From an uncultured Acidobacteriota bacterium (GTDB lineage Bacteria > Acidobacteriota > Vicinamibacteria > Vicinamibacterales > UBA2999), in the NCBI GenBank assembly GCA_902826065.1, contig CADEDM010000001.1, forward strand, positions 23,340 to 87,339: a stretch of DNA of 64,000 nt, in the 5' to 3' direction. The notes under the pieces were generated by a model. It searched no databases. It saw only the letters and a list, made by a program, of their open reading frames with translations, and had not been told where the DNA came from. Numbering within the stretch: position 1 is the stretch's first letter; every line of letters starts with the position of its first letter. Shown in pieces: positions 8,125-50,267 of this stretch. The position numbers and the translations under genes are program-made.

Positions 8125-8984
8125 GTCGCGCACAGCGAGAGGAGGGTCTTCAGTGCCGCGGTTGGCACCAGCGCGGCGCCGCGCAGCTCCTCGGCCGTCC
8201 ATTCGAAGTCGTTGGCCAGGGGCGTCACCTGGCGGACGCGCCCACCGAGGCGCGCGGCCCAGGCGCGCACCGGGGCATTCTCCGGATCGGCGACGACGTC
8301 GATGTCGCACGGCAGGTCCCGGCCCACGCCGTCCGGTTCGATGGCGTGGATCGCCTCGCGCAACGGCACCGGCACCGCGAACCCGACCGCTTCGGCGGTG
8401 AACGCGTCGGGACGCCTCGTCAGCGCCCGCCGCCACGACGGGTCCCACAAGCTGTACGAGGCCTCGAGCGTCTCGACGTGACGCTCACGCAGAGAGGCGA
8501 GATAGGCGCGTCCGTCGATGACTGGCTCCCACACCACCAGGCGCGCCGGGGGCGCGGCCACCCGCGCCGCGGCGCTCATCGCGATCGTCGCGCCGAGGCC
8601 GGCGCCGGCCCACAAGACCGGAACCACCGGACCGCGTTCCTGCAGTACGGCCTGCGCGGCATCCACGTCGGCCATCCAGCCCCCGTAGTCGCCGTCGGCG
8701 TCGCTGCCCTCCGAGTCGCCGGTGCCGAAATAGTCAAAGCGAAGCACCAACGCGCCTTGACGCGACAGGCGTTCCGCGAGGACGCGGAAGAAGCGATGCA
8801 GGCGCACCGCCTCCTGGCCGAACGGCGGACACAGCAACACGCGCTCGCGGGCGTCGCCACCTGAGGCCGGCTCGTGCAGCATGCCGAATAACCGCCGGTC
8901 GACCGGCCCGAAGTGCAGCGGCACGCCGACCGACCGCATCAACGCGCGGGCGTCGGGGGAGTCGATCACGGCGGTTGCCGTCAC
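8121..8984 (-). CDS. Alpha/beta hydrolase fold protein, 'exosortase-system hydrolase 2'-like (copy A)
   Basis: ...LHFGPVDRRLFGMLHEP...VLLCPPFGQEAVRLHRFFRVLAERLSRQGALVLRFDYFGTGDSEG...VVWEPVIDGRAYL. Paralogue of 21048-21833. GTG start in a GTGA overlap at 8981-8984. The family name is recalled from TIGR03101. Confidence 0.75.
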   Translation of the reverse strand: MTATAVIDSPDARALMRSVGVPLHFGPVDRRLFGMLHEPASGGDARERVLLCPPFGQEAVRLHRFFRVLAERLSRQGALVLRFDYFGTGDSEGSDADGDYGGWMADVDAAQAVLQERGPVVPVLWAGAGLGATIAMSAAARVAAPPARLVVWEPVIDGRAYLASLRERHVETLEASYSLWDPSWRRALTRRPDAFTAEAVGFAVPVPLREAIHAIEPDGVGRDLPCDIDVVADPENAPVRAWAARLGGRVRQVTPLANDFEWTAEELRGAALVPTAALKTLLSLCAT

Positions 8985-10360: not shown

Positions 10361-10587
10361 GACGTCACGTTCGGGAAGGCTTCCACACGATAGTCGAGAG
10401 GTTCGTGGTTCACAAGGCAGCGGATCGATGGTCGAGCGCGACCGACGAGCTGTATGCAAATTTGTTACCGTCTCGCGACTCCGGCGCTGACTTCCGGGCC
10501 GATTGCGACTAAAATCATTCCGGCGACGCTCGCGCTCTTCGACCCGGCGCGCACGCGGCGTCAACAGCGCCGCCCCGGAGTTCGCCC

Positions 10588-15372: not shown

Positions 15373-18300
15373 ATGTCACGCCACGTCGCATCCACAGATA
15401 TCGCCATCATCGGCATGGCGTGCCGCGTCCCTGGCGCGCCCAGCTACGGCGCTATGTGGCGCCTGCTGGCCGAGGGCCGCGAAGGCCGGACGACCCTCGA
15501 CGACGAGGCGCTGCGCCAGGCCGGTGAGCCCGAGGCGCTGTTCGCGGATCCGGCCTACGTCAAGGCCGGCATGTTCCTCGACGGCGTCCGCCTGTTCGAC
15601 CCCGGGTTCTTCGGCTTCAGTCCGCTCGACGCCCGCGTGCTCGACCCGCAGCACCGCCAGTTCCTCGAGTGCGCCTGGGAGGCCTTCGAGGATGCCGGCG
15701 TCGACCCGGGCCGCCAGCCGGGCACGATCGGCGTGTTCGCCGGTTCAGGACAGCACCTGTACTACGCGCAGCACCTGCTGACCAACGAGACGCTGGTCGA
15801 TCAGGTGGGCCGCTTCCTGCTGCGCCACACCGGCAACGACAAGGATTTCCTCGCCACCCGCGTCTCTTACTGCTTCGACCTGCGCGGGCCCAGCATCAAC
15901 CTGCAGACCGCATGCTCGACGTCGCTCGTCGCCGTGCACACGGCGATGCAGAGCCTGCTCAACGGCGAGTGCGACGTGGCGCTCGCCGGAGCGGTGACCA
16001 TCGAGCTGCCGGATCGCGTCGGCTACCTGTACCGGCCGAGTGAGATCCTCTCGCCCGACGGCCACTGCCGGCCGTTCGATGCCAGCGCCGGTGGCACGCT
16101 CTTCGGCAGCGGCGTCGCGATCGTCGTGCTGAAGAAGGCGGCGCAGGCGGTCGCGGACGGCGATCACATCCACGCGCTGATCAAGGGGTCGGCCGTCAAC
16201 AACGACGGGTCCGGCAAGGTGAGCTACCTCGCGCCGAGCGTGGACGGCCAGGCGGACGCCATCGCCGAGGCACTGGCGATGGCGGAGGTCGAGCCCGACA
16301 GCGTGAGCTACGTCGAGGCACACGGCACCGGCACCCAGCTCGGCGACCCCATCGAGGTGGCTGCGCTGTCGCAGGCTTACGGCCGCGATTCGGCCACTGC
16401 CGCGCCGTGCGGCCTCGGCTCGATCAAGTCGAACATCGGCCATCTCGACACGGCGGCTGGCACGGCCGGCCTCATCAAGCTGGCGCTTGCGCTGCAGCAC
16501 CGCACGCTGCCGCCGACGCTGCACTACACGGCGCTGAACCCGGCGATCGATCCCGCCCAGACCTCGTTCCGCGTGGTCGACCACCTGCGGCCATGGACCG
16601 GACCGTCGCCCCTGCGCGCCGGACTCAGTTCGCTTGGCGTCGGCGGCACCAACGCGCATCTCGTCGTCGAAGAGGCGCCGCCCACCGCGCCGGACGGCAC
16701 GGCGCGCGACCGGCAGCTCCTGGTGCTGTCGGCGCGCTCGAGGCCCTCGCTCGAACGTGCTCGCCAGGCCTTGGCCGCGCGCCTCGACGGTGTCGAGGCC
16801 TCGGCCCCGCGCCTGGCCGACATTGCCTACACGCTGGCCACCGGCCGGCGCGCGTTCAAGCACCGCGCGAGCCTGGTCGCTGCGGCGCCGCTCGAAGCCG
16901 CCGATCTGCTGTCGGCGCGCGAATCGGACCAGGTGGTCGTCGGCGAGACGGCAGAACAGGGACGCCGTGTGGCGTTCACGTTCGCCGGTGGCGGCGCGCA
17001 GCATCCCGGCATGGGCAAGGAGCTCTACGCCCACGAGCCGGCGTTCCGCGCCGCTCTCGACCGATGTCTGTCCGCACTCACGCGCCACACCGACTTCGAT
17101 CTCAAGCCGCTGCTCTTCCCGGCGACAGCGGAGGCCCGGCAGCACGCCGCGGCCGCGCTCGAACGTCCGAGCCGGGCGCTTCCGGCGCTGTTCTCGATGC
17201 AGTACGCCCAGGCGACCTTGTGGCGCGCGTGGGGCATCGAGCCCCACGCGTTCATCGGCCACAGCATGGGCGAGAACACGGCGGCCTGTCTCGCCGGCGT
17301 GATGGAGCTCGACGATGCGCTCGGCCTCGTGGCCTTGCGCGGCCGCCTCTTCGAACGTGTGGCGCCCGGAGCGATGCTGAGCGTGGAACTCGACGAAGCG
17401 GCCCTGGGGCCTTGGCTGGCGCCCGGGCTCGACGTCGCGGCCGTGAACGCGCCGGGCCTCACCGTCATCTCCGGTCCCGCGGCCGACGTCCGTCGTCTCC
17501 AGGAGCGGCTCGAAGCCGCGAACATCGGCTGCCAGCGCATCCGCATCGAAGTGGCCGCACACTCATCGATGCTCGAGCCGATTCTCGCCGACTTCCGCGC
17601 CTACCTGCGCTCCTTGCCGCTGTCGGCTCCCGCGACGCCCTTCATCTCCAACGTCACCGGCCGCTGGATTGAGCCGGGCGAAGCGACAGATCCCGAGTAC
17701 TGGGTGCGCCACCTCCGGCAGACCGTGCGTTTCGCCGACGGCGTCGGCCAGCTACTGCGCGACGGGCCGCCGGTGCTGCTGGAAGTAGGCCCGGGCCGTA
17801 CCCTCACGAGCCTGGCGTCACTGCATTCCGACAAGACCGCGCACCACGTGGTCCTGACGTCGATGCCGCGGGCTGACGAAGAGGCCAACGACCTGTCGCA
17901 CATGATGGGCGCGCTCGGCCGCCTGTGGGTCAATGGCGTCGATCCCGACTGGACGCGCTTCTACGAGGGCCAGCAGCGGAAGAAGCAGCCGCTGCCGACC
18001 TACTCGTTCGACCATGCCGAGTACTGGATCGACCGTAGCACCGCATCCACCGGCCGCGCGGGCGACGCGCGAGGCCAGGCCGGCGTCTACGAGCCGGTGT
18101 GGCGTCCGGCCGCGCCGCGCCCGTCGTTCGAAGCTCCTGGCGCCTGCGTCCTCGTCCTCGACGACGACCGCGACCGGCTGCGGAGCTTCGAGACGGCCCT
18201 CGTCCGCGCTGGCGCCGCGGTGCGTCTGGTCCTGGCGTCCGACCGGTGCCTCGTTGAGGGCACCGGCCCGTGCGAACTGCGCACCGGTGTGCCCGACGAC

Positions 18301-21051
18301 TATCTGCGCGTGCTCGACGCGTGCCGCGCGGCGGGCTCCACCCCCAGTCACGTGATTCACGCGCTGGGATTGGGTGCAGCGACCGGCATCGACGCCGGCC
18401 ATCACGTCGACGCGGTGCGGCGCTGCTTCGACAGCCAGTTCTTCCTGGCCCAGGCGATCGCGTCGGGCGATGCCACGCCCGTGCACTGGCTCGCGCTCTC
18501 CCACCGCGCCTGGCAGGTCGGCGGCGAGGCGCCGTGGTCGCCCTATGGCGCGCTGGCCGTGGGCATCACGAACACCTTGCCACGCGAGTTCCCCTCGTGG
18601 CTCGCCCGTGTCGTCGACGTCGAGAACCCGCGGCTCGCGGCCGAGTCGATCGACAAGATCCTGGCCGAGATGCCACAGGTGGCGGATGCCACGGTCGACG
18701 AGCCAGTGGTGGCGCACCGCGGACGGCAGCGATTCGTGCGCGACTGGCTGCGGCAGGATGCGCCCGCAGCGCTACCAAGCGTGTTGCTGCGGCCCCATGG
18801 CGTCTATCTCGTCACCGGCGGCACCGGCGGACTCGGTCTGGTGGCCGCCGGCGTGCTGGCGCAGGCAGCGCCCGCTACGCTGGTGCTGGTGTCGCGTCGC
18901 CCGTGGCCGCACCGCCAGCACTGGGACGAGCTGATTCGGCGCGGCGCGCCCGAGGCCGAGTCGCTCAACGCGCTGCTCGCGCTCGAACAGAAGGGTGCCC
19001 GTGTCGTCCTCGAAACTGCGGACATCGCCGACGCGACGTCGGTCGAGGCCGTCGTCTCCCGGACGCGACAGACCTGCGGCGCGCTGCACGGGGTCATCCA
19101 TGCCGCCGGCATCGTCGACGACGCGCCCCTGATCGCGAAGGACCTGGCGCACGCGCATCTGGTGCTGGCCCCCAAGGTCGCCGGCACGACCGCCCTCGCC
19201 AGGGCCCTGGCCTCCGCGTCGCTGGACTTCTTCGTCCTGTACTCTTCCTCGAGCGCATTCGCCGGGCTGCCGGGCCAGGCCGACTACGCCGCCGCCAACG
19301 CCTTCCTCGACGGTTTCGCCGCCTGGGCGCGCGAGCAGGGCCTGCCCTGCGTCGCCGTCGACTGGCCGGCGTGGCGTGGCACTGGACTCGCCGCCGCCAT
19401 CAGCCGTGGTGCCGCCGTGCGCCCGGCACCCGGGCGTCCCACCGACCACCCGATGCTCGGCCGATGCACGGTCGACGAGGCCGGACGTCGTGCCTTCCTG
19501 ACGCAGGTCAGCGCCGAGGACTCGTGGATGATTCGCGAGCATCGTCTCAAGGACGGCCCGGCGCTCATGCCGGGGTTCGGCTTCCTCGAGATGGCTCGGG
19601 CCGCATGGTTCGAAGGCCGTCCGGCGGGACCGTTCGAGCTGGCCGATACCTCGGTCGACTATCCGTTCATCGTCCAGGACCAGGCCCCGCGCTGGCTCGG
19701 CGTCGAGCTCTCGCCGGCATCGAACGCGTTCGTCGTGGTCAGCGAGGACGGCGACGGTCGCACGGAGCACGTCCGTGGCACTGTGCGGGACGCCTCGCCG
19801 CTCGCCGCGCGCCTCGATGTCGCTGCAATCCGGCAGCGCTGCGCGCGTGGCGTACAGCGTTTCGACGACGCCGACCACCACCCGTTCCTCCAGTTCGGCC
19901 CGCGCTGGGCGTCGCTGAAGACGGTGGCCTATGGCACGCACGAAGCGCTGATCGATCTGGATCTGGCGCCGGAGTTTCGCGCCGATCTCGACGCCTACGT
20001 GCTCCATCCGGCGCTGCTCGACATGGCCGCCGCCGGGGCCCAGGTGATCATCGAAGGCCATACGCCCACCGACGAAGTGTTCGTGCCGGTGGGCCTCGGC
20101 CGCCTGCGCGCCACCGCCGGATTCCCGTCGCGGTGTCTCAGCCACGTCACGTACAAGCCCGGCCCGGCTGGCGAGTCGCGAGAGGTAGCGCACTTCGACG
20201 TGCGCGTCGCCGACGCCGACGGTACCGTCTTCCTCGAGATCGACCACTTCGCCATGCGCCGCCTGCCCGGCACAGACGCGCTGCGGCGGCTGCCGGCGGC
20301 GGGGTCGCGCGCGATCGCCCCGACGCTCGAGCGCGCGCTCGAACTCGGCATCGACCCGGGGGAAGGGGCACGTGTGCTCGCGACGGTGCTGGCCGGCGTC
20401 ACGAGCGCGCAAGTCGCAGTGGCGCCGGTGGAGCCGCGCGTGCTCGTCCGCGAACTGCGGCAGGCGGCGGCCCCGCCGGCGCCAGCACGAGAGGTCATCG
20501 CGTTCGATCCCGACGACGATCCGGCGATTGCGCCGGCCGAGACCGTGCTCACCGCGTGCCCTGCTGTCGCGGCGGCGGTCGTCCGCTCGTTCCATGGCGA
20601 TGGCGCGACCCGGCGTCTCGTGGCCTTCTTCGTGCCCGACCACGACCACTTCGTGACGCAGGGCGAGGTGCGGCGCTACGCGCGCGAACATCTCCCCGCC
20701 GGCCAGGTCCTGACGCAACTCATCGAGCTCGACGAGCTGCCGCGCAACGGCACCGGCGTCGACCGCCGCGCGCTGCACGACCCGTCGGCGCCGGTGACCC
20801 GCATCGTCCCGCCCCGCACCACCGTCGAGAAAGCCGTCGCCCGGGTGTGGCAGGACGCGCTCGGAGTGGATGCCGTGGGCCTCACCGACAACTTCTTCGA
20901 CCTCGGGGGCCACTCGCTCCTGTCGGCGAGGATCATCGTGCAGCTCGATCGCAAGTTCGGGGTGCGCCTCAACCAGGCGACGATGGCGCTGGGCACGCTC
21001 GAGCAGATCGCGCGCGACATCGAGCGGCGCACCGAGGACAGCCCGAAGTGA
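15373..21051 (+). CDS. Type I polyketide synthase, KS-AT-KR-DH-(vestigial A-domain C-terminal subdomain)-PCP; no TE
   Basis: 1892 aa. See the domain features below. All catalytic motifs of KS, AT, KR and DH can be read directly from the translation. Confidence 0.95.
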   Translation: MSRHVASTDIAIIGMACRVPGAPSYGAMWRLLAEGREGRTTLDDEALRQAGEPEALFADPAYVKAGMFLDGVRLFDPGFFGFSPLDARVLDPQHRQFLECAWEAFEDAGVDPGRQPGTIGVFAGSGQHLYYAQHLLTNETLVDQVGRFLLRHTGNDKDFLATRVSYCFDLRGPSINLQTACSTSLVAVHTAMQSLLNGECDVALAGAVTIELPDRVGYLYRPSEILSPDGHCRPFDASAGGTLFGSGVAIVVLKKAAQAVADGDHIHALIKGSAVNNDGSGKVSYLAPSVDGQADAIAEALAMAEVEPDSVSYVEAHGTGTQLGDPIEVAALSQAYGRDSATAAPCGLGSIKSNIGHLDTAAGTAGLIKLALALQHRTLPPTLHYTALNPAIDPAQTSFRVVDHLRPWTGPSPLRAGLSSLGVGGTNAHLVVEEAPPTAPDGTARDRQLLVLSARSRPSLERARQALAARLDGVEASAPRLADIAYTLATGRRAFKHRASLVAAAPLEAADLLSARESDQVVVGETAEQGRRVAFTFAGGGAQHPGMGKELYAHEPAFRAALDRCLSALTRHTDFDLKPLLFPATAEARQHAAAALERPSRALPALFSMQYAQATLWRAWGIEPHAFIGHSMGENTAACLAGVMELDDALGLVALRGRLFERVAPGAMLSVELDEAALGPWLAPGLDVAAVNAPGLTVISGPAADVRRLQERLEAANIGCQRIRIEVAAHSSMLEPILADFRAYLRSLPLSAPATPFISNVTGRWIEPGEATDPEYWVRHLRQTVRFADGVGQLLRDGPPVLLEVGPGRTLTSLASLHSDKTAHHVVLTSMPRADEEANDLSHMMGALGRLWVNGVDPDWTRFYEGQQRKKQPLPTYSFDHAEYWIDRSTASTGRAGDARGQAGVYEPVWRPAAPRPSFEAPGACVLVLDDDRDRLRSFETALVRAGAAVRLVLASDRCLVEGTGPCELRTGVPDDYLRVLDACRAAGSTPSHVIHALGLGAATGIDAGHHVDAVRRCFDSQFFLAQAIASGDATPVHWLALSHRAWQVGGEAPWSPYGALAVGITNTLPREFPSWLARVVDVENPRLAAESIDKILAEMPQVADATVDEPVVAHRGRQRFVRDWLRQDAPAALPSVLLRPHGVYLVTGGTGGLGLVAAGVLAQAAPATLVLVSRRPWPHRQHWDELIRRGAPEAESLNALLALEQKGARVVLETADIADATSVEAVVSRTRQTCGALHGVIHAAGIVDDAPLIAKDLAHAHLVLAPKVAGTTALARALASASLDFFVLYSSSSAFAGLPGQADYAAANAFLDGFAAWAREQGLPCVAVDWPAWRGTGLAAAISRGAAVRPAPGRPTDHPMLGRCTVDEAGRRAFLTQVSAEDSWMIREHRLKDGPALMPGFGFLEMARAAWFEGRPAGPFELADTSVDYPFIVQDQAPRWLGVELSPASNAFVVVSEDGDGRTEHVRGTVRDASPLAARLDVAAIRQRCARGVQRFDDADHHPFLQFGPRWASLKTVAYGTHEALIDLDLAPEFRADLDAYVLHPALLDMAAAGAQVIIEGHTPTDEVFVPVGLGRLRATAGFPSRCLSHVTYKPGPAGESREVAHFDVRVADADGTVFLEIDHFAMRRLPGTDALRRLPAAGSRAIAPTLERALELGIDPGEGARVLATVLAGVTSAQVAVAPVEPRVLVRELRQAAAPPAPAREVIAFDPDDDPAIAPAETVLTACPAVAAAVVRSFHGDGATRRLVAFFVPDHDHFVTQGEVRRYAREHLPAGQVLTQLIELDELPRNGTGVDRRALHDPSAPVTRIVPPRTTVEKAVARVWQDALGVDAVGLTDNFFDLGGHSLLSARIIVQLDRKFGVRLNQATMALGTLEQIARDIERRTEDSPK
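15397..16675 (+). other. PKS ketosynthase domain
   Basis: DIAIIGMACRVPGA; active-site Cys in QTACSTSLVA (codon 15913-15915); EAHGTGTQLGDPIE; KSNIGHLDTAAG; ends GGTNAHLVVEE. Confidence 0.9.
16969..17818 (+). other. PKS acyltransferase domain
   Basis: VAFTFAGGGAQHPGMG; nucleophile elbow FIGHSMGE (Ser codon 17263-17265). The specificity motif reads VAAHS, neither a clear HAFH nor YASH, so the substrate is not called. Confidence 0.85.
18796..19380 (+). other. PKS ketoreductase catalytic subdomain (structural subdomain lies upstream from about 18130)
   Basis: HGVYLVTGGTGGLGLV Rossmann motif; SSSSAFAGLPGQADYAAANAFLD (catalytic Tyr). Confidence 0.85.
19447..20290 (+). other. PKS dehydratase (double hot-dog) domain located AFTER the KR
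   Basis: HPMLGRC...IREHRLKDGPALMPGFGFLEMA (catalytic His), LQFGPRWASL, LHPALLDMAAAGAQ (catalytic Asp motif). Confidence 0.8.
20491..20780 (+). other. Vestigial adenylation-domain C-terminal subdomain (A8-A10 region only)
   Basis: RRLVAFFVPDHDHFVTQGEVRRYAREHLPAGQVLTQLIELDELPRNGTGVDRRAL. The A10 Lys is replaced (NGTGVDRR versus NGKLDRR in the neighbouring NRPS). No A1-A7 core lies upstream of it. Confidence 0.65.
20812..21030 (+). other. NRPS-type carrier (PCP/thiolation) domain of the PKS
   Basis: VARVWQDALGVDAVGLTDNFFDLGGHSLLSARI; phosphopantetheinyl Ser codon 20914-20916. Confidence 0.85.
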
Positions 21052-21833
21052 ACCCCCTCTTCTTCGGACCCGCGGACTCGCCGCTCTACGGCGTGCACCA
21101 GCCGCCCCAGATCGCGGGCAACGGTGGCGGCGTCGTGCTGTGCTATCCGTTCGGCCAGGAGTACATGCGGGCCCACCGCGCCTGCCGGCAGCTCTCGCTG
21201 CTGCTGGCCCGGCGCGGCTTCCACGTGCTCCGCTTCGACTACCGCGGCACCGGCGACTCGAGTGGCGACATCGACGACGCCGGCGTCGAGCGCTGGGTCG
21301 ACGATGCGGGCGCGGCTATCGACGAGCTGCGCGAACTGAGCGGCCTGTCACAGGTCTCGGTGATCGGGCTCCGGCTCGGCGCGTGGTTCGCGGCCCGGGC
21401 CACCGAGCGGCGCACCGACGTCGACCGGCTCGTCGTCTGGGATCCGATCGTCGACGGCGCCGCCTACCTCGAGGAGATTCGCGGGGAAGTCGCCGCCGAG
21501 GTGCCGACCAGCTACAGCCCGCCGTCGGGCAGCCGGGTGTTCGCCGACGGCACGATCCACTACAACGGGTTCGAGATCCCCGCACGCCTGGCCGGTGAGC
21601 TGTCACGCCTGCGGCTGGACGCGACCGTGCCCGCGTCGGCGCGGCGCGTGCTGCAACTCGTCTCGCACGAGGTCCCGGCGTTCCTGCGGTTGCGCGATGC
21701 TTGGCGCGCGCATCCCGCCTACCGGTATCAGTTCACGCCGGCTCCGCACGACTGGAACTTCGTCGACGAGTTCGGCGGGATTCTGCTGCCGCAGCCGGCG
21801 ATTCAGGCGATCGTCGAGTGGATGAGCGAGTGA
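21048..21833 (+). CDS. Alpha/beta hydrolase fold protein, 'exosortase-system hydrolase 2'-like (copy B)
   Basis: GTG start in a GTGA overlap with the PKS stop (21048-21051). VNPLFFGPADSPLYGVHQPP...VVLCYPFGQEYMRAHRACRQLSLLLARRGFHVLRFDYRGTGDSSG...VVWDPIVDGAAYL. It appears in the track only as the tail of the artefactual 1187-aa ORF 18270-21833. Confidence 0.8.
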   Translation: MNPLFFGPADSPLYGVHQPPQIAGNGGGVVLCYPFGQEYMRAHRACRQLSLLLARRGFHVLRFDYRGTGDSSGDIDDAGVERWVDDAGAAIDELRELSGLSQVSVIGLRLGAWFAARATERRTDVDRLVVWDPIVDGAAYLEEIRGEVAAEVPTSYSPPSGSRVFADGTIHYNGFEIPARLAGELSRLRLDATVPASARRVLQLVSHEVPAFLRLRDAWRAHPAYRYQFTPAPHDWNFVDEFGGILLPQPAIQAIVEWMSE

Positions 21834-21840
21834 GCGAGCG

Positions 21841-22689
21841 ATGAGAGAACGCGTGCTTCGCATCGGGCGGCCGACGCCCCTGGCCAGCGTCGCCACCGAG
21901 CCCGACGCCTTCGACGCGTCGAAGCCGGCCGTGCTGATCCTGAACTCGGGAGTGCTGCACCACATCGGGTCGTGCCGGATGTCGGTACGGCTGGCGCGCC
22001 GGCTGGCGGAACGCGGCCTGCTCGCCGTGCGCTTCGACTTCTCGGGCCTCGGCGACAGCGAGCCGCGCCTGGCGACGCCGAGCTTCGAAGAAGTGTCGGT
22101 GACCGAGTCCACGGAGGTGATGGACCTGCTGCAGCGCACACGCGGCGTGCAGTCGTTCATCCTCTACGGCCTCTGCTCCGGCGCCGACGGCTCGTACAAC
22201 ACCGCGCTGCGCGATCCACGCGTCGTGGGGATCAGCCAGTTCGACCCGTACTGCTACGTGACCCCCCGTTACTACCTGCGGTACTACCTGCAGGCGGCGC
22301 GTGATCCGCGCCGGTGGCGCAGCGTGGCGACGCGCGCACTGAAGACCCTGTTCGGCCGAGAGACCGCGCCGCAGACGACGGTCGAGTCGGAGTTCGTGGA
22401 GTTGCCCAGCTACGTCCGCGTCTTCCCATCGCGGGAGTCGATTGCCGCCGGCCTGGCGGCGCTCGTGCAGCGCGGCGTGCACGTGCAGGCGAACTTCCCG
22501 CGCGGACCGCTGTACAACCACCGGTCGCAGTTCGTCGACAGCTTTCGCGACGTCGACTTCCGCGGCCTGGTCGAGGTCAACTACTACGGTGACGCGAATC
22601 ACATCGTGACGCAGCCCGTCCTGCAGGGCCGCATCATCGACGGCGTCGCCGACTGGGCCGCGCGCGTGGCCATGGGCGGTGCGCGATGA
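21841..22689 (+). CDS. Alpha/beta hydrolase, 'exosortase-system hydrolase 1'-like (copy B)
   Basis: PAVLILNSGVLHHIGSCRMSVRLARRLAERGLLAVRFDFSGLGDSEP...FILYGLCSGADGSY (Cys codon 22174-22176 at the nucleophile elbow). Confidence 0.8.
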   Translation: MRERVLRIGRPTPLASVATEPDAFDASKPAVLILNSGVLHHIGSCRMSVRLARRLAERGLLAVRFDFSGLGDSEPRLATPSFEEVSVTESTEVMDLLQRTRGVQSFILYGLCSGADGSYNTALRDPRVVGISQFDPYCYVTPRYYLRYYLQAARDPRRWRSVATRALKTLFGRETAPQTTVESEFVELPSYVRVFPSRESIAAGLAALVQRGVHVQANFPRGPLYNHRSQFVDSFRDVDFRGLVEVNYYGDANHIVTQPVLQGRIIDGVADWAARVAMGGAR

Positions 22690-25600
22690 CGTCCGAGACA
22701 CCGCCGATGTCCTCTGCGCTCACGGTCCTGGTCGTTGGCGATCAATCGCTGACGATCGAATGCAGCGAGATCCTGCGCGCTGCCGGGCACACCATCACCG
22801 CGGTCGTGACCGGTGACGCCCGCGTCCGCCGCTGGTCCGAGGAGCGCGGCGTGGCGGCCCTGCCCGACGCGCAGACCGCCCTCGACAGCCCATCCGCCGC
22901 GGCGTTCGACTACCTGCTGTCGATCGCCAACCTGAAGCTGCTGCCGCCGGCGCTGGTCAGCCGTGCGCGGTTCGGCGCCGTCAACTTCCACGACGGCCCG
23001 CTGCCGCGCTACGCCGGTCTCAACGCGCCGGCGTGGGCGCTCATGGCCGGTGAGCAGCAGCACGGCATCACCTGGCACGTGATGACCGACGAGGTCGATG
23101 CCGGCGACGTGCTGCTCGAGCGCGCCGTGGCCGTCGACGACGATGACACCTCGTTCACGCTGAATGCGCGCTGCTACGAGGTCGGCATCCAGTCGTTCGC
23201 GGAGCTCGTGCCCCGCCTGGCCTCACGGTCGGCCGCCGGCGCGCCGCAGGACCTGTCGCTGCGCACGTATTTCGCCCGGGCGGAGCGGCCGCGCGGCCTG
23301 GCCACCCTCGACTGGCGGCAGCCCGCCGCGCATCTCGACCGGGTCGTGCGTGCGCTCGACTTCGGGCCGTATCGCAATCCACTGGCCGTGCCCAAGGTGT
23401 GGGTCGGCTCGCGGCTCCTGGTGGCACGCCGGAGCCAGGTACTCGAAACGGGCGACGCGGCTACGCCAGGGACGATCAAAGAAGTTGGCGAACGGCGTCT
23501 CGTCGTGGCCTGCGCGCAGGGCGCCCTGGCGTTGAGCGACCTCACCGACATGAGCGGCGCCGCCGTGGACGTCCGCGCGGTGGCCGCGGCGGAAGGGCTG
23601 CGTGTGGGCAGTCGCCTGCCGGTGTCCGACGACGCACGCCTCGACGCGGTCGACCGCCTCGCCGCTCAGATTGCGCCGCACGACGGCCGGTTCCGGGCGC
23701 TCATGCGGCGCTTCACGCCCACCGAGGCGCCGGCGGCCGGCGCCGAATCGACCGTGCGCACCTGGCACGAGTGGGACGGCCGCACCGCCAGACCGGACAC
23801 GTTGCTCGCCGCGATCGTCCTGGTGCTGGCGCGCATCACTCAGTCGCCGGCGCTGGCGTTCGGCTTCGTACCGTCGTCGCGCGCAGTGCTGGACGGACAC
23901 CTGCGCGCCTACGTGCACGACGTCGTGCCCGTCGAGATCGCGTGCGCCGATGCAGACGCGGTGGCGGAGCTCGCCGCGCGCGTGGCGGCGGCCGCCGCCC
24001 ACGCCGAGACCGCGGTGGGCATGTCGCGCGACCTGTTGCTTCGTGAAGGCGCGGCCGCGGCGCTCGAGTCGCCCGACCGCGCGCCGATCCGCGTCGTGCG
24101 CGCCACGGGGCTCCTCCCCGATACGGCGCGTGCCGCCGCCGGCGCGGCCGTGATGACGTTCCAGGTGACCGACGACGGGCGCATGGGCTTGCTGGTGGAT
24201 GCGGGGCTGGTGTCCCCAGACATCGCCCGCGAGATTCTCGCGTCGATCGGCCAGGTCGTACCGGTGGTCGAGGACGGCCTCGGACGCGTCGCCGACGTCG
24301 ACCTGCTCACGCGCGATCAGCGCGAGCGCCTGATGGAGTGGGCGAGGGGTGACGCGCCCGACGGCGTCGCGCCGCTTCCCGACGTCTGCGTCCACGAGCT
24401 GTTCGAGGCCCAGGTCGCCCGCTCGCCCGGCCATGTGGCCTGCGTCTGCCGCGGCCAGGAGCTGACCTACGCGGATCTGAACCAGGCGGCCAACCGCCTC
24501 GCCCGCCACCTGCGCACCTCGGGCGTCGGCACCGGTGACCGCGTCGGCGTCATGGTCGACCGGTCGCTGGAGATGGTGGTCGTGCTCTACGCGGTGCACA
24601 AGGCCGGCGCGGCCTACGTGCCGCTCGACCCGAAGTACCCGTCGGAGCGTCTCGGGTTGGTGCTCGCCGGCGCCGACGTCCGTTGTCTCGTCGTGCGTGT
24701 GGCCACTTCCGGCGTCGACGCCGCCATCCCGCAGGTCGTCCTCGAGGACGTGTGGCCGCGGCTCGCCGAACTGGCGCCAGACAACCTTGGCGCCCTGGCC
24801 ACGCCCGACGATCTCGCCTACGTCATTTACACCTCCGGCTCGTCGGGCACTCCGAAGGGCGTGATGGTCGAGCACCGCAACGTGGTGAACTTCTTCGCTG
24901 GAATGGACCGGCGGATCGACCGCACGCCAGGCACGTGGCTCGCCGTGACCAGCATCTCGTTCGACATCTCGGTGCTCGAGCTGTTCTGGACGCTGGCCAG
25001 GGGCTTCACCGTCGTCCTGCATGCCGATGGGCCCGCGAGCGCCTCGCTCGTCGTGCCGCAGGCGGCGCGCGCCAAGGGCATCGAGTTCGGGCTGTTCTAC
25101 TGGAACGTCGCCTCACCCGACAGCGACCACGCGCAGGAGAAATACCGGCTGCTGCTCGAGAGCGCGAAATACGCCGACGCGAACGGCTTCACCGCCGTGT
25201 GGACGCCGGAGCGCCACTTCGCGTCATTCGGCGGTCTCTACCCGAATCCGGCTGTCACGTCAGCGGCGCTCGCCATGGTCACGAGCCGCGTGGCCCTGCG
25301 CGCCGGCAGTTGCGTCGTGCCGCTGCATCACCCGATCCGGATCGCCGAGGAATGGGCGGTCGTCGACAACCTCTCGGGCGGCCGCGTCGGCATGTCGGTG
25401 GCGTCGGGCTGGGCCACGCCAGATTTCGCGATTCGCCCCGAGGCCTTCGAAGGGTCGAAGCGCCTGCTGTTCGAGAACACGGCGATCGTGAAGCGGCTCT
25501 GGCGCGGCGAGACCGTGGAGTTCCCGGGACCGAAGGGGCCGGTGCAGGTGCGCACCCTGCCGCGGCCGCTCCAGAAAGAGCTCCCCGTCTGGGTGACGAC

Positions 25601-27356
25601 CGCGGGCAACGTCGAGACCTTCGTGTCGGCAGGCCGCATGGGCGCCAACCTGCTGACCCACCTGCTCGGCCAGACCGTCGAGGAAGTGGCGGAGAAGGTC
25701 GCCGCCTACCGCGCGGCTTGGCGCGACGCCGGGCACGCGGGGCGTGGCATCGTGACGCTGATGCTCCACACGTTCGTGGGCCCCGACCCTGACGAGGTCG
25801 AGCGCATCGTGCGCGGACCGATGAAGGAGTATCTGCGCAGCGCCGCCAACCTGGTCAAGGCCGCCGCCTGGCAGTTCCCGACGTTCAAGCGCCTGTCGGA
25901 CGAACAGGGCAAGACCCTCGACGATTTCTTCAACACGATCGCCGAGGACGACATGGATGCCCTGCTGGAGTTCGCATTCCAGCGCTACTTCCGCACGAGC
26001 GGTCTGTTCGGCACCGTCGAGGAGTGCCAGGCGATGGTGGGGCGCGTCGACGGGGCCGACATCGACGAGATCGCGTGCCTGATCGACTACGGCATCGACA
26101 CCGACGTCGTGCTCGAGCATCTGCCGTACCTGAACGCTCTGCGCGAGTCGGTGCAGGCGCGTGGCGACGATCGCCGCCACTCCCTCGCCGGCCTGCTCGG
26201 CAGCGGCGTCATCACACACTTCCAGTGCACGCCGTCGATGGCGCGGATGGTGCTCGCAGAGCCGGCCGCGACCGTGGCTCTTGGCGAGCTCCGCGAGGTC
26301 CTAGTCGGAGGGGAAGCGTTGCCCCCCGACGTCGCCGACGCCCTCGCGACGGCGGCGCCGGGGCGCGTGACCAACGTCTATGGCCCGACCGAGACGACCG
26401 TCTGGTCGGCGGCCAGCCGCGTCAGTCCTGGCGGCGGCGCGGTGCCGATCGGCACGCCGTTGCTGAACCAGCAGCTCTACGTGCTCGATAGCGTGGGCCG
26501 GCCGCTGCCGCCTGGCGTACCTGGCGAGCTCGTCATCGGCGGCATGGGAGTCACGCGCGGCTACTGGAACCTCGACGCCAGCACGCGTGAGCGTTTCGTG
26601 GCGGACACTCTGTCGCCACGTCCCGCAGCGCGGATGTATCGCACCGGCGATCGTGGGCGCGTGCGGCCGGATGGGCAGTTCGAGTGTCTCGGGCGGCTCG
26701 ACCAGCAGGTCAAGATCCGCGGCTACCGCGTCGAGCCCGGCGAGATCGAGGCGCGGCTGTGCGAACATGCCGGCATCGCCGAAGCGGCCGTGATGCTGCG
26801 CGAGGATCGTCCGGGCGACCAGCGTCTGGTCGCCTACGTGCGCCCGGCCCCGAGCCAGCGACCGGCACCTGACGACGTTCGCCGCCATGCCGCCGAGCGC
26901 CTGCCCGAGTACATGGTGCCGTCGATGGTCGTCGTGCTCGACCAGATGCCGCGGACACCGAACGGCAAGCTCGACCGTCGCGCGTTGCCCGCACCGGACT
27001 CGGTGACGGCGCCCGCGGCGCCCGCGGCGTCCGCGAGCGCTGCGACGCTGTCGACGGGCGTCTCGGAGCCGCTCGTGACCGAAGTCTGGGAACACGCGCT
27101 CGGTGTGCCGGTGCGTGGCCGCCAGGACAACTTCTTCGATCTCGGCGGGCACTCGCTGCTCGTCGTCCAGGTTCTGGCTGAGCTCCGCAAGCGAGTCAAG
27201 AAGCCGCTTGCGCTGACCGATCTCTTCAAGTACACCACGGTGGAGAGTTTGGCCGCGTTCATCGACGGTCAGCAGGTGTCGACGCGAACTCAGGCCGGAG
27301 CCCGGGCGAGTCGACGGCGCGACGCGCTCGCGCGGAGGGAACGCGCGTTCGAATGA
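22686..27356 (+). CDS. NRPS-like initiation protein: N-formyltransferase, C-domain-like remnant, adenylation domain interrupted by a luciferase-like monooxygenase, then PCP; no TE
   Basis: 1556 aa. ATGA overlap with the upstream hydrolase (22686-22689). See the domain features below. Confidence 0.95.
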   Translation: MTSETPPMSSALTVLVVGDQSLTIECSEILRAAGHTITAVVTGDARVRRWSEERGVAALPDAQTALDSPSAAAFDYLLSIANLKLLPPALVSRARFGAVNFHDGPLPRYAGLNAPAWALMAGEQQHGITWHVMTDEVDAGDVLLERAVAVDDDDTSFTLNARCYEVGIQSFAELVPRLASRSAAGAPQDLSLRTYFARAERPRGLATLDWRQPAAHLDRVVRALDFGPYRNPLAVPKVWVGSRLLVARRSQVLETGDAATPGTIKEVGERRLVVACAQGALALSDLTDMSGAAVDVRAVAAAEGLRVGSRLPVSDDARLDAVDRLAAQIAPHDGRFRALMRRFTPTEAPAAGAESTVRTWHEWDGRTARPDTLLAAIVLVLARITQSPALAFGFVPSSRAVLDGHLRAYVHDVVPVEIACADADAVAELAARVAAAAAHAETAVGMSRDLLLREGAAAALESPDRAPIRVVRATGLLPDTARAAAGAAVMTFQVTDDGRMGLLVDAGLVSPDIAREILASIGQVVPVVEDGLGRVADVDLLTRDQRERLMEWARGDAPDGVAPLPDVCVHELFEAQVARSPGHVACVCRGQELTYADLNQAANRLARHLRTSGVGTGDRVGVMVDRSLEMVVVLYAVHKAGAAYVPLDPKYPSERLGLVLAGADVRCLVVRVATSGVDAAIPQVVLEDVWPRLAELAPDNLGALATPDDLAYVIYTSGSSGTPKGVMVEHRNVVNFFAGMDRRIDRTPGTWLAVTSISFDISVLELFWTLARGFTVVLHADGPASASLVVPQAARAKGIEFGLFYWNVASPDSDHAQEKYRLLLESAKYADANGFTAVWTPERHFASFGGLYPNPAVTSAALAMVTSRVALRAGSCVVPLHHPIRIAEEWAVVDNLSGGRVGMSVASGWATPDFAIRPEAFEGSKRLLFENTAIVKRLWRGETVEFPGPKGPVQVRTLPRPLQKELPVWVTTAGNVETFVSAGRMGANLLTHLLGQTVEEVAEKVAAYRAAWRDAGHAGRGIVTLMLHTFVGPDPDEVERIVRGPMKEYLRSAANLVKAAAWQFPTFKRLSDEQGKTLDDFFNTIAEDDMDALLEFAFQRYFRTSGLFGTVEECQAMVGRVDGADIDEIACLIDYGIDTDVVLEHLPYLNALRESVQARGDDRRHSLAGLLGSGVITHFQCTPSMARMVLAEPAATVALGELREVLVGGEALPPDVADALATAAPGRVTNVYGPTETTVWSAASRVSPGGGAVPIGTPLLNQQLYVLDSVGRPLPPGVPGELVIGGMGVTRGYWNLDASTRERFVADTLSPRPAARMYRTGDRGRVRPDGQFECLGRLDQQVKIRGYRVEPGEIEARLCEHAGIAEAAVMLREDRPGDQRLVAYVRPAPSQRPAPDDVRRHAAERLPEYMVPSMVVVLDQMPRTPNGKLDRRALPAPDSVTAPAAPAASASAATLSTGVSEPLVTEVWEHALGVPVRGRQDNFFDLGGHSLLVVQVLAELRKRVKKPLALTDLFKYTTVESLAAFIDGQQVSTRTQAGARASRRRDALARRERAFE
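22719..23560 (+). other. Formyltransferase domain (Fmt/ArnA/LgrA-F-like; N- and C-subdomains)
   Basis: LTVLVVGDQSL...; catalytic Asn/His in AVNFHDGPLPRYAGLNA; Asp in HVMTDEVDAGDVLL; followed by a Formyl_trans_C-like beta-barrel (PKVWVGSRLLV...). Confidence 0.8.
24384..25035 (+). other. Adenylation domain, N-terminal portion (A1-A4)
   Basis: LTYADLNQAANRLARHL (A1), AVHKAGAAYVPLDP (A2), LAYVIYTSGSSGTPKGV (A3), SISFDISVLELF (A4; Asp235-equivalent present). Confidence 0.9.
25077..26160 (+). other. Luciferase-like monooxygenase (LLM/MOx) domain inserted between A4 and A5
   Basis: GIEFGLFYWN...YADANGFTAVWTPERHF...VVPLHHPIRIAEEWAVVDNLSGGRVGMSVASGW...VWVTTAGN.... Resembles the 'natural product biosynthesis LLM domain' (recalled as TIGR04020/MupA type). 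Confidence 0.8.
26217..26995 (+). other. Adenylation domain, C-terminal portion (A5-A10)
   Basis: NVYGPTETTVW (A5), GELVIGGMGVTRGYW (A6), YRTGDRGR (A7), KIRGYRVEPGEIE (A8), LPEYMVPS (A9), PRTPNGKLDRRAL (A10, Lys intact). Confidence 0.9.
27061..27270 (+). other. PCP/thiolation domain of the NRPS-like protein
   Basis: VTEVWEHALGVPVRGRQDNFFDLGGHSLLVVQV; Ser codon 27153-27155. Confidence 0.85.
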
Positions 27357-28298: not shown

Positions 28299-29381
28299 TT
28301 ACTCGCCGGGAAGGACGCGCAGGTTGCGCGGCGTCGCCGGTGTCGTCGTCGAGGCTGCTCCCAGCGCGTAGCCGGGGCTCACGTTGCCCTGGTCGTCGAT
28401 CACGAAGAGGTAGAGACCGTTGGTCGACGTGAACGTGCCAGGGTTGTAGACGATGGACACGCTGTTGTTCGACCAGCTCTGGATGTTCTGGATCTCGCGG
28501 TGACGGGCGCCGTTGTACGAGCTGCTGTCGCCAATCTCCACGCGAGCGCGCGAGGTGTCGACGTAGACGTCGTCCCAGTAGGTGTAGGCATCGCCGTAGG
28601 TGGAGGGGCAGCTGCCGTCGGCCTCGTGGCTGAAGTAGTTGCCGAGCCACAGCGTGTCCCACAGCCCCTGGCCGCTCTCACGCGTGCGGAACGACCCGCG
28701 CATGTCCACGACCTTCTCGCCGTCGATCCACATCTCGCTCGTGCCGTCATCGACACCGGCGCTCGACGCCTTGAAGTAGGCCTGGATGTGCGACCACTTG
28801 CGGCTGAACGTCTGCGCCGTCTGGCCGAGCCACGTGTGGAAGTTGCCGTTGACGCCGTCCTGCGACAAGTGGCTCGATCCGATGCCCGCACAATAGAGGT
28901 TGTAGTACAGGTTCGGCGACAGGTCGATGTTGGCGTGCAGCCGGAAGATCTTGTGGTTGCGCGAGAACGGCGCCGCTGCGTCGAGGTAGTACCACGCGTC
29001 AAGGTAGATCTGCGACAGCGGCGTGCCGGAGACGCCGAAGCTCGAGCCGTAGGCACCGCCGTCGAATCGCGCGCGAACGCTCATCTGCGAATTCGATCGG
29101 CGGACCGTCGATGAATAGCGCGGCTTGTTCCCGCCACTCGTCGACCACCCGTTGCCGATGTCGACGTTGTTGGCGCCGGTCTCGAACGAGTCGAATTTGA
29201 GCGGCGCGGCCACCGGCTTGGTCCCGAAGCCGTTGCCGGAAATGTTCAGGATTTCACCGCGGTTGGGCGAGCCGCTGAGGCCCGAAACCGCCAATCCGGG
29301 AGCCGCCTGAGGTTGAGCCAGGGACAGGAGCGCGAGAGCAGCTCCGAGCGTGCAAACAAAGCGAAGGTTCCGTGCCAGCAT
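28299..29381 (-). CDS. Secreted jelly-roll (ConA/LamG-like) protein flanked by IPT/TIG-like beta-sandwich segments; possible glycan-binding or glycan-cleaving protein
   Basis: Signal peptide MLARNLRFVCTLGAALALLSLAQPQAAPG. GEILNISGNGFG is IPT-like. The core (KIFRLHANIDL...SEMWIDGEKVVDMRG...WDDVYVD) resembles lectin/lyase jelly-rolls. Codon usage is visibly less GC-biased than in the neighbouring genes. The function is a guess. Confidence 0.55.
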   Translation of the reverse strand: MLARNLRFVCTLGAALALLSLAQPQAAPGLAVSGLSGSPNRGEILNISGNGFGTKPVAAPLKFDSFETGANNVDIGNGWSTSGGNKPRYSSTVRRSNSQMSVRARFDGGAYGSSFGVSGTPLSQIYLDAWYYLDAAAPFSRNHKIFRLHANIDLSPNLYYNLYCAGIGSSHLSQDGVNGNFHTWLGQTAQTFSRKWSHIQAYFKASSAGVDDGTSEMWIDGEKVVDMRGSFRTRESGQGLWDTLWLGNYFSHEADGSCPSTYGDAYTYWDDVYVDTSRARVEIGDSSSYNGARHREIQNIQSWSNNSVSIVYNPGTFTSTNGLYLFVIDDQGNVSPGYALGAASTTTPATPRNLRVLPGE

Positions 29382-29606: not shown

Positions 29607-30986
29607 TCAGCGTCTGCGGCGCGCTCCCCACACCTGCCAGGACGTCGACAGGCCGAAGCGAACGGAATCGCGACGATAGCGCCCCGGGACACCGGCGGCG
29701 ACGATGCCGGAACCCACCAGCTTGTGCTCGTAGATTGCATAGCTGCCGAACAGCGATAGCGCCCGGAACACGTTCACCTCGATTCGCCCCGAGGCCGTGG
29801 TGGTCTCGAAGGAATTTGATTGAAGCAGCTTGGGGCTGCCGTCGGCCCGCGATGCGCTCAGCAGGACCTGGCATCGCCGGAGCGGGTTGCCCGAGAGGCC
29901 GAGGTCGGTCGCAGTCGACAGGAACGGATCGGTCGTGATGCCCGGAAGGACCACGACTGTGCGGCCGATGCCGGCATTCGCCGACCATGATCGGCCCAGG
30001 TCGATGTGACCCGTGACGCGGCCCGACGGCTCGGTGAACTCGCTCACGCCGTCGAACCCGCTGGTGTCGCCGCGGGTGATGCCGCCGCCCACTTCGATGC
30101 CCACGTTCCGGCGCGCCGACAGCGCGCGCTCGTAGCGCAGCACGAGACGCCCGGTGTGTGTCCTGACCACCTGATCGAGAGTCGTGGACACATCCTGTGT
30201 CGTGTCGTTGAAGTCGTAGGTCACGTTCGTCGTGAGGCGTCGCGACGTCCGCCAGGCGTGATTGAGCGAGAACCCGTACGCCTGTGATTCAAGCCCGCTT
30301 CCCGTTTGCGGCTTCTGCCGGAACAGCGATCCGTTGGCGCTGGTCGAGTGCCGCAATGACCACTGATAGGTCATCGACGCTGTGGGGCCGCCCGAGATCA
30401 TGCGCTGCGACGTCAACCCCTGCATCGGGCCGGGCGACAGGGCGGCGCCGTCGGCGGAGACGGCCATCGGATTGAAGAATACCGTGGGCTGCGACAGGAC
30501 GTTGCCGCCCACGGAGGCGTTGAGGCGGCGGCCGAGGCTGGTGCCGGCCTGGAGGTTTGCGGCCAGTGTGGTCAGGTTGTCGTCGATCGCGCTCGACTGG
30601 CTCGTGAACGCCAACGCCGAGGCTTCAACCGACTTCCGGCCCTTCGTCGCCGCGAAATTGGCGCCGGCGTTGACCGATGTGATGGTGCCGCTGTCGAGCG
30701 GGCCGAACGGGCCTATCGGATCTCCACCGGGCGCGGCGTCCGGCACGGAGTTGTCGTCGCGGCCGCGTGCGACGTCGAAACTGAGCGACAGTGACTTCGT
30801 CCCCCGGCCGCTCCCCGTCTGCGGCTGCTGGCGCGCCGGCGGGCGGGGCGTCGGTGCAGGAGGAGTGGTCTGGGGCGGCGTGGTCTGTGGAGGCGTCGCC
30901 TGAGCAGGCGTGGTCGTTTGCGCGGAACCGCGCACGCTGCCAGCGACGCAAGCCAGTACCGCCGAACACAGCAGGAATCGGCGCAC
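29607..30986 (-). CDS. Predicted outer-membrane beta-barrel protein of the EPS export operon
   Basis: Signal peptide MRRFLLCSAVLACVAGSVRGSAQ, then a Pro/Thr-rich tract (TTPPQTTPPQTTPP). After that come ~400 aa of alternating-polarity short strands rich in G/S/T/N, and an aromatic-rich C-terminus (FGLSTSWQVW). Its position between the Wza-like gene and the locus end matches XrtA-locus OM proteins. Confidence 0.6.
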   Translation of the reverse strand: MRRFLLCSAVLACVAGSVRGSAQTTTPAQATPPQTTPPQTTPPAPTPRPPARQQPQTGSGRGTKSLSLSFDVARGRDDNSVPDAAPGGDPIGPFGPLDSGTITSVNAGANFAATKGRKSVEASALAFTSQSSAIDDNLTTLAANLQAGTSLGRRLNASVGGNVLSQPTVFFNPMAVSADGAALSPGPMQGLTSQRMISGGPTASMTYQWSLRHSTSANGSLFRQKPQTGSGLESQAYGFSLNHAWRTSRRLTTNVTYDFNDTTQDVSTTLDQVVRTHTGRLVLRYERALSARRNVGIEVGGGITRGDTSGFDGVSEFTEPSGRVTGHIDLGRSWSANAGIGRTVVVLPGITTDPFLSTATDLGLSGNPLRRCQVLLSASRADGSPKLLQSNSFETTTASGRIEVNVFRALSLFGSYAIYEHKLVGSGIVAAGVPGRYRRDSVRFGLSTSWQVWGARRRR

Positions 30987-47267: not shown

Positions 47268-47269
47268 CG

Positions 47270-48559: not shown

Positions 48560-48609
48560 GCCGTGATCGTAACAGTCGCGTTGGCCGGCCGACGGCCGCC
48601 GCCGTGCGA

Positions 48610-50261: not shown

Positions 50262-50267
50262 GCACAC

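Follow-up and report, generated by a model that had tools for sequence, protein, structure and literature searches.

Two kinds of α/β-hydrolase-fold system that bear on the genes described here are already known: the hydrolase 1/hydrolase 2 pair of exosortase-type polysaccharide loci, a bioinformatic entity defined by the families TIGR03100 and TIGR03101 that has been named yet left uncharacterised, apparently for many years, and α/β-fold acyltransferases with a cysteine nucleophile. In canonical XrtA systems the pair is accompanied by a stand-alone acyl-CoA ligase, an acyl carrier protein (ACP) and a pyridoxal phosphate-dependent decarboxylase. PhaC and dienelactone hydrolase have Cys-His-Asp triads, a GxCxG elbow and a thioester acyl-enzyme intermediate, and CmaE and SyrC reportedly combine an α/β fold with an active-site cysteine. 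Aminoacyl groups are moved between carrier domains by CmaE, SyrC and LgnA (PMC8748450). Here we analyse two copies (A and B) of a hydrolase 1/hydrolase 2 pair in a 64,000-nucleotide stretch of an uncultured Acidobacteriota bacterium (contig CADEDM010000001.1, positions 23,340 to 87,339; hereafter the window) and find that the nucleophile elbow of hydrolase 1 carries a family-wide cysteine, while the elbow of hydrolase 2 usually carries an arginine. Its most likely task is the transfer or release of acyl groups attached to carriers.

Published information on the named families is sparse. Literature searches for TIGR03100/TIGR03101, for exosortase together with hydrolase, ACP or ligase, and for polyketide synthase (PKS) together with exosortase returned nothing on active sites and a single table entry, for the TIGR03100 homologue Bcam1334, for which a role in polysaccharide quality control has been speculated (PMC3584217); Haft 2006 makes no mention of the hydrolases. 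In the searchable literature we found no account of a constant Cys/Arg division of labour or of natural fusions, nor any description of an association with carrier-protein lines beyond canonical XrtA, including clusters with ligases that join amino acids to carrier proteins (aa:CP ligases).

The two pairs and their key residues are as follows.

21048-21833, plus strand: hydrolase 2, copy B (2B), 261 residues, α/β-hydrolase fold without a nucleophile (Pfam, TIGR03101, AlphaFold2)
21372-21374, plus strand: Arg109 codon CGG in G-L-R-L-G (VIGLRLGAWFA), nucleophile-elbow position of hydrolase 2B
21441-21443, plus strand: Asp132 codon (W-D-P, directly after strand β6) of hydrolase 2B, invariant
21747-21749, plus strand: His234 codon, at the canonical catalytic-His loop position of hydrolase 2B, not conserved
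21841-22689, plus strand: hydrolase 1, copy B (1B), 282 residues, α/β-hydrolase with a predicted Cys nucleophile (Pfam, TIGR03100, AlphaFold2)
22174-22176, plus strand: Cys112 codon TGC in G-L-C-S-G (ILYGLCSGADG), nucleophile elbow of hydrolase 1B
22243-22245, plus strand: Asp135 codon, candidate triad acid (after strand β6) of hydrolase 1B
22600-22602, plus strand: His254 codon, candidate triad base (loop after strand β8) of hydrolase 1B, invariant
8121-8984, minus strand: hydrolase 2, copy A (2A), 287 residues, elbow G-A-G-L-G, with W-E-P instead of W-D-P
8598-8600, minus strand: Gly129 codon GGC of hydrolase 2A, in LWAGAGLGATIA
7261-8124, minus strand: hydrolase 1, copy A (1A), 287 residues, elbow G-I-C-S-A
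7786-7788, minus strand: Cys113 codon TGC of hydrolase 1A, in VVVGICSAAEH

Four independent lines agree that Cys112 and Arg109 lie at the nucleophile elbow. AlphaFold2 single-chain models, built on 120-sequence alignments, place Cys112 of hydrolase 1B between strand 106–111 and helix 113–124 (predicted local distance difference test score (pLDDT) of 89) and Arg109 of hydrolase 2B between strand 103–108 and helix 110–119 (pLDDT 93). Profile searches against Protein Data Bank (PDB) sequences align G-L-C-S-G and G-L-R-L-G with the G-L-S-M-G of 9pjb and 8b4u, laying both residues onto the catalytic serine of these Hydrolase_4-type esterases. A profile–profile comparison of hydrolase 1 with hydrolase 2 (95% probability) pairs Cys112 with Arg109 in a single column, and BLASTP of the two hydrolase 2 copies places Gly129 opposite Arg109. 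Foldseek searches of the PDB gave esterases and lipases at E values of 1e-11 to 1e-14 for both proteins; the structures returned were serine enzymes only, with no Cys-elbow or Arg-elbow structure among them. Both proteins also pass the threshold of 27 for Pfam Hydrolase_4 (PF12146), at 38.0 bits for hydrolase 2B and 29.2 bits for hydrolase 1B, and the serine of the GxSxG motif of serine hydrolases is replaced by Cys in hydrolase 1 and by Arg (copy B) or Gly (copy A) in hydrolase 2. The first-pass annotation of this DNA had read, by eye, a G-x-C-x-G/A elbow in both hydrolase 1 copies and an elbow pentapeptide devoid of Ser and Cys in both hydrolase 2 copies. The four codons read as it claimed (TGC twice, CGG and GGC), its alignment by eye was right according to the models, the PDB profile alignments and the profile–profile comparison alike, and AlphaFold monomers, which it had suggested as a check, place Cys112 and Arg109 at a strand–turn–helix elbow.

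The cysteine of hydrolase 1 is conserved throughout its family. G-L-C-S-G is invariant, cysteine included, in the 120 closest database homologues of hydrolase 1B (120 of 120; 44–76% identity) and across the 79 genome loci in which hydrolase 1 was matched; these loci belong to Acidobacteriota, Gammaproteobacteria (including cultured Marinobacter), Gemmatimonadota, Verrucomicrobiaceae, Myxococcota and Thermoanaerobaculia. With copy A as the query, all 147 divergent representatives that aligned (50% identity clusters; motif G-x-C-S-G) have the cysteine too. Judged from the alignments, conservation of the cysteine, like that of the hydrolase 2 arginine described below, is far above chance, and the family alignments that the first-pass annotation had proposed as a test bear out the residue it singled out. 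Asp135 is present in 119 of the 120 homologues and in all 79 loci, and across the homologues, loci and representatives Asp135 and His254 are conserved at about 100%, matching the cysteine. Because the cysteine is family-wide and is accompanied by a conserved Asp and His, a Cys112-His254-Asp135 triad, predicted by position in the models, is likely in hydrolase 1. The family is large, with some 5,500 cluster representatives (50% identity) matching hydrolase 1 at E ≤ 0.001.

A second invariant cysteine of the copy B clade, Cys45, was considered as the nucleophile and set aside, as it is not conserved across the wider family. It lies in a loop past strand β3 of hydrolase 1B (residues 35–48, N-S-G-V-L-H-H-I-G-S-C-R; about 21943-21984) that is modelled at a pLDDT of 73–77 and in which Asn35, His40, Gly43 and Cys45 are invariant within the copy B clade; this loop may be a mobile lid or an oxyanion loop. 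In one relative (P0453), a hydrolase 1-like domain is fused to a low-molecular-weight phosphotyrosine phosphatase domain; such phosphatases are the usual partners of Wzc-type tyrosine kinases in exopolysaccharide (EPS) loci.

Hydrolase 2 is conserved in a different way. Arg109 and the Asp132 of W-D-P are found in 120 of 120 closest homologues of hydrolase 2B and in all 81 genome loci, and Glu38, Arg41 and His43 are invariant as well. The position of the canonical catalytic histidine varies: of the 81 loci, 44 have His there and 34 have Gly, and on this alignment evidence a remaining catalytic triad in hydrolase 2 is excluded. In the separate family around the copy A hydrolase 2, 109 of 120 members have the elbow G-x-R-L-G and 11 have G-x-G-L-G, the window's copy being one of these 11, so that by sequence Arg is the usual state and the glycine of copy A a minority-clade exception. 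The first-pass annotation was therefore right that hydrolase 2 has no nucleophile and understated the case: the position holds an otherwise invariant arginine, which implies a selected role and not simple decay. Its description of hydrolase 2 as a non-catalytic or differently catalytic partner likewise agrees with the missing nucleophile and the unconserved histidine. A decayed pseudogene is ruled out by the intact open reading frame (ORF), a gene-like G+C content at third codon positions and the strong conservation.

The invariant residues of hydrolase 2 could also be read as those of an enzyme in its own right, in which Arg109 and Asp132 act on a carboxylate in a non-canonical reaction (decarboxylase, lyase or cyclase) and the two hydrolases carry out successive steps. 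Serine-less α/β-fold enzymes do exist, methylketone synthase and the cofactor-free dioxygenases among them, and the invariance of Arg109, Asp132, Glu38, Arg41 and His43 would suit such an enzyme. Yet the minority clade that includes the window's copy A has Gly for Arg109 and W-E-P for W-D-P and is still paired to hydrolase 1, and the E-x-x-H-R motif, which is shared with ordinary esterases of the same subfamily, is likely structural. We consider a catalytic hydrolase 2 improbable.

The division between Cys and Arg extends to the curated families. TIGR03100 and TIGR03101, both exosortase A system-associated, are the best NCBIfam matches of hydrolase 1 and hydrolase 2, respectively, and both copies score far below their cut-offs (TIGR03100, cut-off 168.45 bits: copy B 65.9, copy A 68.0; TIGR03101, cut-off 202.75 bits: copy B 97.3, copy A 84). 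Other NCBIfam and Pfam matches are to generic α/β-hydrolase families or are weak, sub-cut-off matches to unrelated named families. In scans that took in the best 150 representatives for hydrolase 1A and the best 120 hits for hydrolase 2A, none of 262 relatives (142 of hydrolase 1 and 120 of hydrolase 2) reaches the TIGR03100 or TIGR03101 cut-offs; no TIGR03100 match at E ≤ 1e-40 occurs among the 142 hydrolase 1 relatives, and the best TIGR03101 E value among the 120 relatives of the copy A hydrolase 2 is 6.6e-34. A tblastn search of PLSDB plasmids gave no feature named 'exosortase A system-associated'. On these scores the window's hydrolases belong to clades outside the coverage of the curated models, and proteins of these clades are currently labelled only 'alpha/beta hydrolase' or 'pimeloyl-ACP methyl ester carboxylesterase'.

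We read the elbow residues of the curated models indirectly, from the score shifts of in-silico point mutants. Replacing the cysteine of hydrolase 1B lowers its TIGR03100 score from 65.9 bits to 59.8 (Ser), 60.0 (Ala) or 58.3 (Asp), and hydrolase 2, which scores 49.4 bits under TIGR03100, reaches 56.5 bits once its Arg109 is replaced by Cys. Under TIGR03101, residue 109 scores 97.3 bits as Arg, 95.4 as Lys, 94.1 as Ser, 94.0 as Ala, 93.4 as Cys and 93.3 as Gly, a modest preference for Arg of about 3 bits (a loss of 2–4 bits on mutation). By these shifts the canonical families, too, appear to expect a cysteine (TIGR03100) and an arginine (TIGR03101) in the columns of the elbow, and the feature would therefore be common to the whole superfamily of pairs and not specific to this window.

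The genes next to the copy B pair point to carrier proteins as its partners. Four same-strand genes at 15373-27356 have junctions that overlap or almost touch and are translationally coupled: the PKS stop overlaps the GTG start of hydrolase 2B (GTGA), hydrolase 1B starts 7 nucleotides past the hydrolase 2B stop, and the hydrolase 1B stop overlaps the start of a gene for a protein resembling a nonribosomal peptide synthetase (NRPS) (ATGA). The outer two genes, each ending in a peptidyl carrier protein (PCP) domain, are these.

15373-21051, plus strand: type I PKS, KS-AT-KR-DH, orphan AMP-binding_C fragment, PCP (PCP at about 20833-21015)
22686-27356, plus strand: NRPS-like protein with a formyltransferase, an adenylation (A) domain into which a luciferase-like monooxygenase (TIGR04020) is inserted, and a PCP (PCP at about 27075-27263)

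Domain scans found no thioesterase (TE), condensation (C) or reductase (R) domain in the PKS, and none in the NRPS-like protein; joining or release of the chain would therefore have to be supplied in trans. In the PKS the KR lies ahead of the DH, and the AMP-binding_C fragment (the C-terminal subdomain of an A domain, residues 1723–1795) comes without an AMP-binding core. The monooxygenase of the NRPS-like protein is of the MupA/Atu3671 type (TIGR04020 at 480 bits).

This arrangement recurs. Hydrolase 1 lies directly 3′ of hydrolase 2 in 79 of 80 loci, across six named groups; copy A keeps the same order, with the ATG of hydrolase 1A overlapping the hydrolase 2A stop (ATGA). The four-gene cassette is present in many of the 80 loci and, together with a phosphopantetheinyl transferase (PPTase), in a Steroidobacteraceae metagenome-assembled genome, and the formyltransferase-A(monooxygenase)-PCP architecture is kept beside the hydrolase pair in many genomes. 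In 66 of 78 loci a carrier domain ends no more than 600 nucleotides upstream of hydrolase 2. Pairs of the copy A type, in Variovorax and on a metagenome contig, have FAAL-ACP-KS-AT-ACP-aminotransferase and C-A-PCP-C-PCP proteins as neighbours; Wza and Wzc genes are present in the Variovorax locus as well, as is a PPTase, which was called only there and not on the metagenome contig.

The copy B cassette is itself part of a polysaccharide locus. Positions 1-33000 of the window (G+C 70%) form an EPS locus of the XrtA/PEP-CTERM type, with genes for a chain-length determinant, a tyrosine kinase, a priming sugar transferase, an export protein, an ATPase and several glycosyltransferases, and with a deacetylase that scores above the TIGR03006 cut-off. 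No exosortase gene was detected among the scanned ORFs of the 64-kb window. Three ORFs of the locus have no family match (6236-7453, 28299-29381 and 29607-30986). Further along, a possible second biosynthetic group at 43813-51755 comprises a PEP-synthase/PigC/RedH-like protein (43813-46947, minus strand), a fatty-acid CoA ligase/OleC-like protein (48610-50214, minus strand) and a NodU-like carbamoyltransferase (50268-51755); a prenyltransferase-like ORF (46356-47267, minus strand) overlaps the first of these, and perhaps only one of the two is real.

Natural fusions tie the two hydrolases to each other and to carriers. Searches of plasmids and chromids with tblastn (the Cupriavidus metallidurans record being read with local hidden Markov models) identified single proteins of about 600 residues that contain both halves.

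L084, 8941-10791: fusion, Mycetohabitans rhizoxinica megaplasmid NZ_CP062172.1
L085, 8926-10737: fusion, Azospirillum brasilense p2
L086, 9431-11728: fusion ORF, Cupriavidus metallidurans CH34 NC_007974.2

In these fusions the N-terminal half matches the hydrolase 2 profile and has the elbow G-L-R-x-G, the C-terminal half matches the hydrolase 1 profile and has the elbow G-x-C-x-G, and the domain order is the gene order of the separate pair. The Mycetohabitans fusion is flanked by an ACP, an acyl-CoA dehydrogenase-like gene and an amino acid-[ACP] ligase resembling an aminoacyl-tRNA synthetase (aaRS); the Azospirillum locus has an annotated amino acid-[ACP] ligase and an acyl-CoA dehydrogenase-like match; and DUF1839 and a GH2-like gene lie beside all three fusions. 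In a further protein (P0503) the hydrolase 1 domain is fused to A-PCP-KS-AT. The fusions argue that hydrolases 1 and 2 act as one physical unit on carrier-bound thioesters. For aa:CP ligases, the fate of the aminoacyl-carrier products has been reported as unknown (PMC9437257).

We propose that the two genes encode a two-part α/β-hydrolase-fold unit that acts on the thioesters of neighbouring carrier domains. The Cys112-His254-Asp135 triad of hydrolase 1 would take over the acyl or aminoacyl cargo of a phosphopantetheine thioester, hold it as an S-acyl-cysteine and hand it to an acceptor. This acceptor could be the thiol of a second carrier, an amine or hydroxyl on the partner intermediate or, within the polysaccharide pathway, a sugar or lipid; hydrolase 1 would in this way supply the chain-transfer or release step absent from the flanking PKS and A-PCP proteins. 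Having lost both nucleophile and conserved histidine, the paralogue hydrolase 2 would serve in docking or substrate binding, and its invariant elbow arginine probably binds an anionic group. The proposal makes hydrolase 1 a Cys-His-Asp transacylase on carrier-protein thioesters and hydrolase 2 its obligate non-catalytic partner; the fold, the placement and conservation of the residues, the linkage of the genes and the fusions are what the data show, and from them we infer the covalent chemistry, the heterodimer and the identity of donor and acceptor, and regard the whole as evenly poised between right and wrong. The idea that hydrolase 1 is a Cys-dependent acyltransferase drawing on the flanking PCPs was already put forward in the first-pass annotation. 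The family-wide cysteine with its conserved Asp and His strengthens it, transfer as opposed to hydrolysis or polymerisation is still conjecture, and the link to the PCPs is circumstantial, drawn from the gene coupling, the carrier domain in 66 of 78 loci, the lack of C, TE and R domains and the A-PCP-KS-AT fusion.

Several observations weigh against this proposal. A carrier domain directly upstream of hydrolase 2 is missing from 12 of the 78 loci, and in the window's own copy A a carrier-protein gene is not immediately adjacent: the pair there follows a non-carrier protein, a 527-residue ORF (8981-10564, minus strand) with a weak glucose/sorbosone dehydrogenase β-propeller match, the stop of which overlaps the GTG start of hydrolase 2A. 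Asp135, the candidate acid, comes after strand β6 and not after the more usual β7, and the geometry of the triad was read from secondary-structure positions of the models only. Pfam and NCBIfam scans showed no similarity to CmaE, SyrC or PhaC, and no direct comparison with CmaE or SyrC was made. Hydrolysis, too, would be compatible with a cysteine nucleophile, dienelactone hydrolase being an example.

Other explanations rank below this one. Hydrolase 1 might be a plain cysteine thioesterase, for release or for type II editing, that frees the product as an acid, with hydrolase 2 a dispensable degenerate duplicate. The flanking synthases have no TE domain, the nearest solved structures are esterases and lipases, and the Cys triad of dienelactone hydrolase does hydrolyse; but thiol nucleophiles generally favour transthioesterification over hydrolysis, and a degenerate duplicate would not retain an invariant Arg, Asp132, Glu38, Arg41 and His43 together with strict adjacency in six groups, nor would it occur fused to hydrolase 1. 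We think this unlikely, if by no means negligible. After the catalytic hydrolase 2 discussed above comes a small PHA-synthase-like hydrolase 1 that would polymerise PKS-made 3-hydroxyacyl units or O-esterify them, for example onto exopolysaccharide. Its GxCxG lipase box with Asp and His resembles that of PhaC, the KR domain of the PKS would yield β-hydroxyacyl thioesters, and the locus is a polysaccharide locus; the PKS has a DH domain too, however, neither protein was assigned a PhaC-type family in Pfam or NCBIfam, and the pair occurs with such varied carrier loaders (aa:CP ligase, FAAL-PKS-aminotransferase, C-A-PCP) that the shared feature is the thioester and not the hydroxyacyl group, which makes this quite improbable. 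Very improbable is a pair unrelated to carriers, an esterase or deacylase acting on polysaccharide or on PEP-CTERM proteins, as the place of the pair in EPS loci and the quality-control speculation for Bcam1334 (PMC3584217) might suggest, given that by eye the hydrolase N termini have no obvious signal peptide and appear to fit a cytoplasmic site, that the pair is tightly coupled to carrier-domain genes and its hydrolase 1 domain occurs fused to A-PCP-KS-AT, and that the fused form is also found in cassettes containing both an ACP and an aa:CP ligase.

Returning to transacylation, what were 'two hydrolases of unknown function' become a concrete hypothesis, thioester transacylation by a pair of enzyme and pseudo-enzyme, because of the conserved Cys-His-Asp, the nucleophile-less paralogue with its invariant Arg, the occasional fusion and the tracking of carrier-protein genes. 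TE-less PKS and NRPS-like lines within EPS loci are missing a release step, which the pair is a candidate to provide; it may also explain the fate of aa:CP ligase products. For annotation, the consequence is that the curated models miss these clades. A wider reading, tentative and on balance doubtful, is that the pair, separate or fused, is a hitherto unrecognised general off-loading machine for carrier thioesters in cell-envelope and polysaccharide pathways, attaching acyl or aminoacyl groups to a glycan or lipid; such a machine could consist of a Cys-triad transacylase and an Arg-elbow pseudo-hydrolase and could serve PKS and NRPS-like lines as well as the ligase/ACP system of canonical XrtA loci and the aa:CP ligases that resemble aaRS.

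The pair of this window can be set against the systems described so far. In sequence and fold it is closest to the Hydrolase_4-type esterases and lipases (TTL lipase 7q4h, PET46 8b4u, the MHETase-like 9pjb and feruloyl esterases), with which the window's hydrolases have the FDxxGxGDS and ExxHR motifs in common; those enzymes, however, use a GxSxG serine nucleophile and are lone-acting hydrolases. With PhaC and dienelactone hydrolase, hydrolase 1 shares a Cys elbow of the GxCxG type, and it differs from PhaC in its much smaller size (282 residues in hydrolase 1B against about 355–590), in having no PhaC family match in Pfam or NCBIfam and, as also from dienelactone hydrolase, in the placement of the acid after strand β6. 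To the dienelactone hydrolase family itself (PF01738, threshold 21 bits) only the copy A hydrolase 1 has a match, sub-threshold at 14.3 bits (E = 0.031). As in the TIGR03100/TIGR03101 pair, the window's genes lie side by side, encode two different α/β-hydrolases and belong to an EPS locus of the XrtA type; unlike it, they are partnered by a type I PKS and a formyltransferase-A(luciferase-like monooxygenase)-PCP protein, and the ORF scans of the window showed no exosortase gene. The likeness to CmaE and SyrC would be one of task: these are stand-alone shuttles of a thioester-bound unit, and the window pair likewise stands between two carrier-ending proteins without C or TE domains. CmaE and SyrC, however, work alone and belong to toxin biosynthesis, whereas the pair described here belongs to polysaccharide loci and joins its predicted cysteine enzyme to a nucleophile-less paralogous partner.

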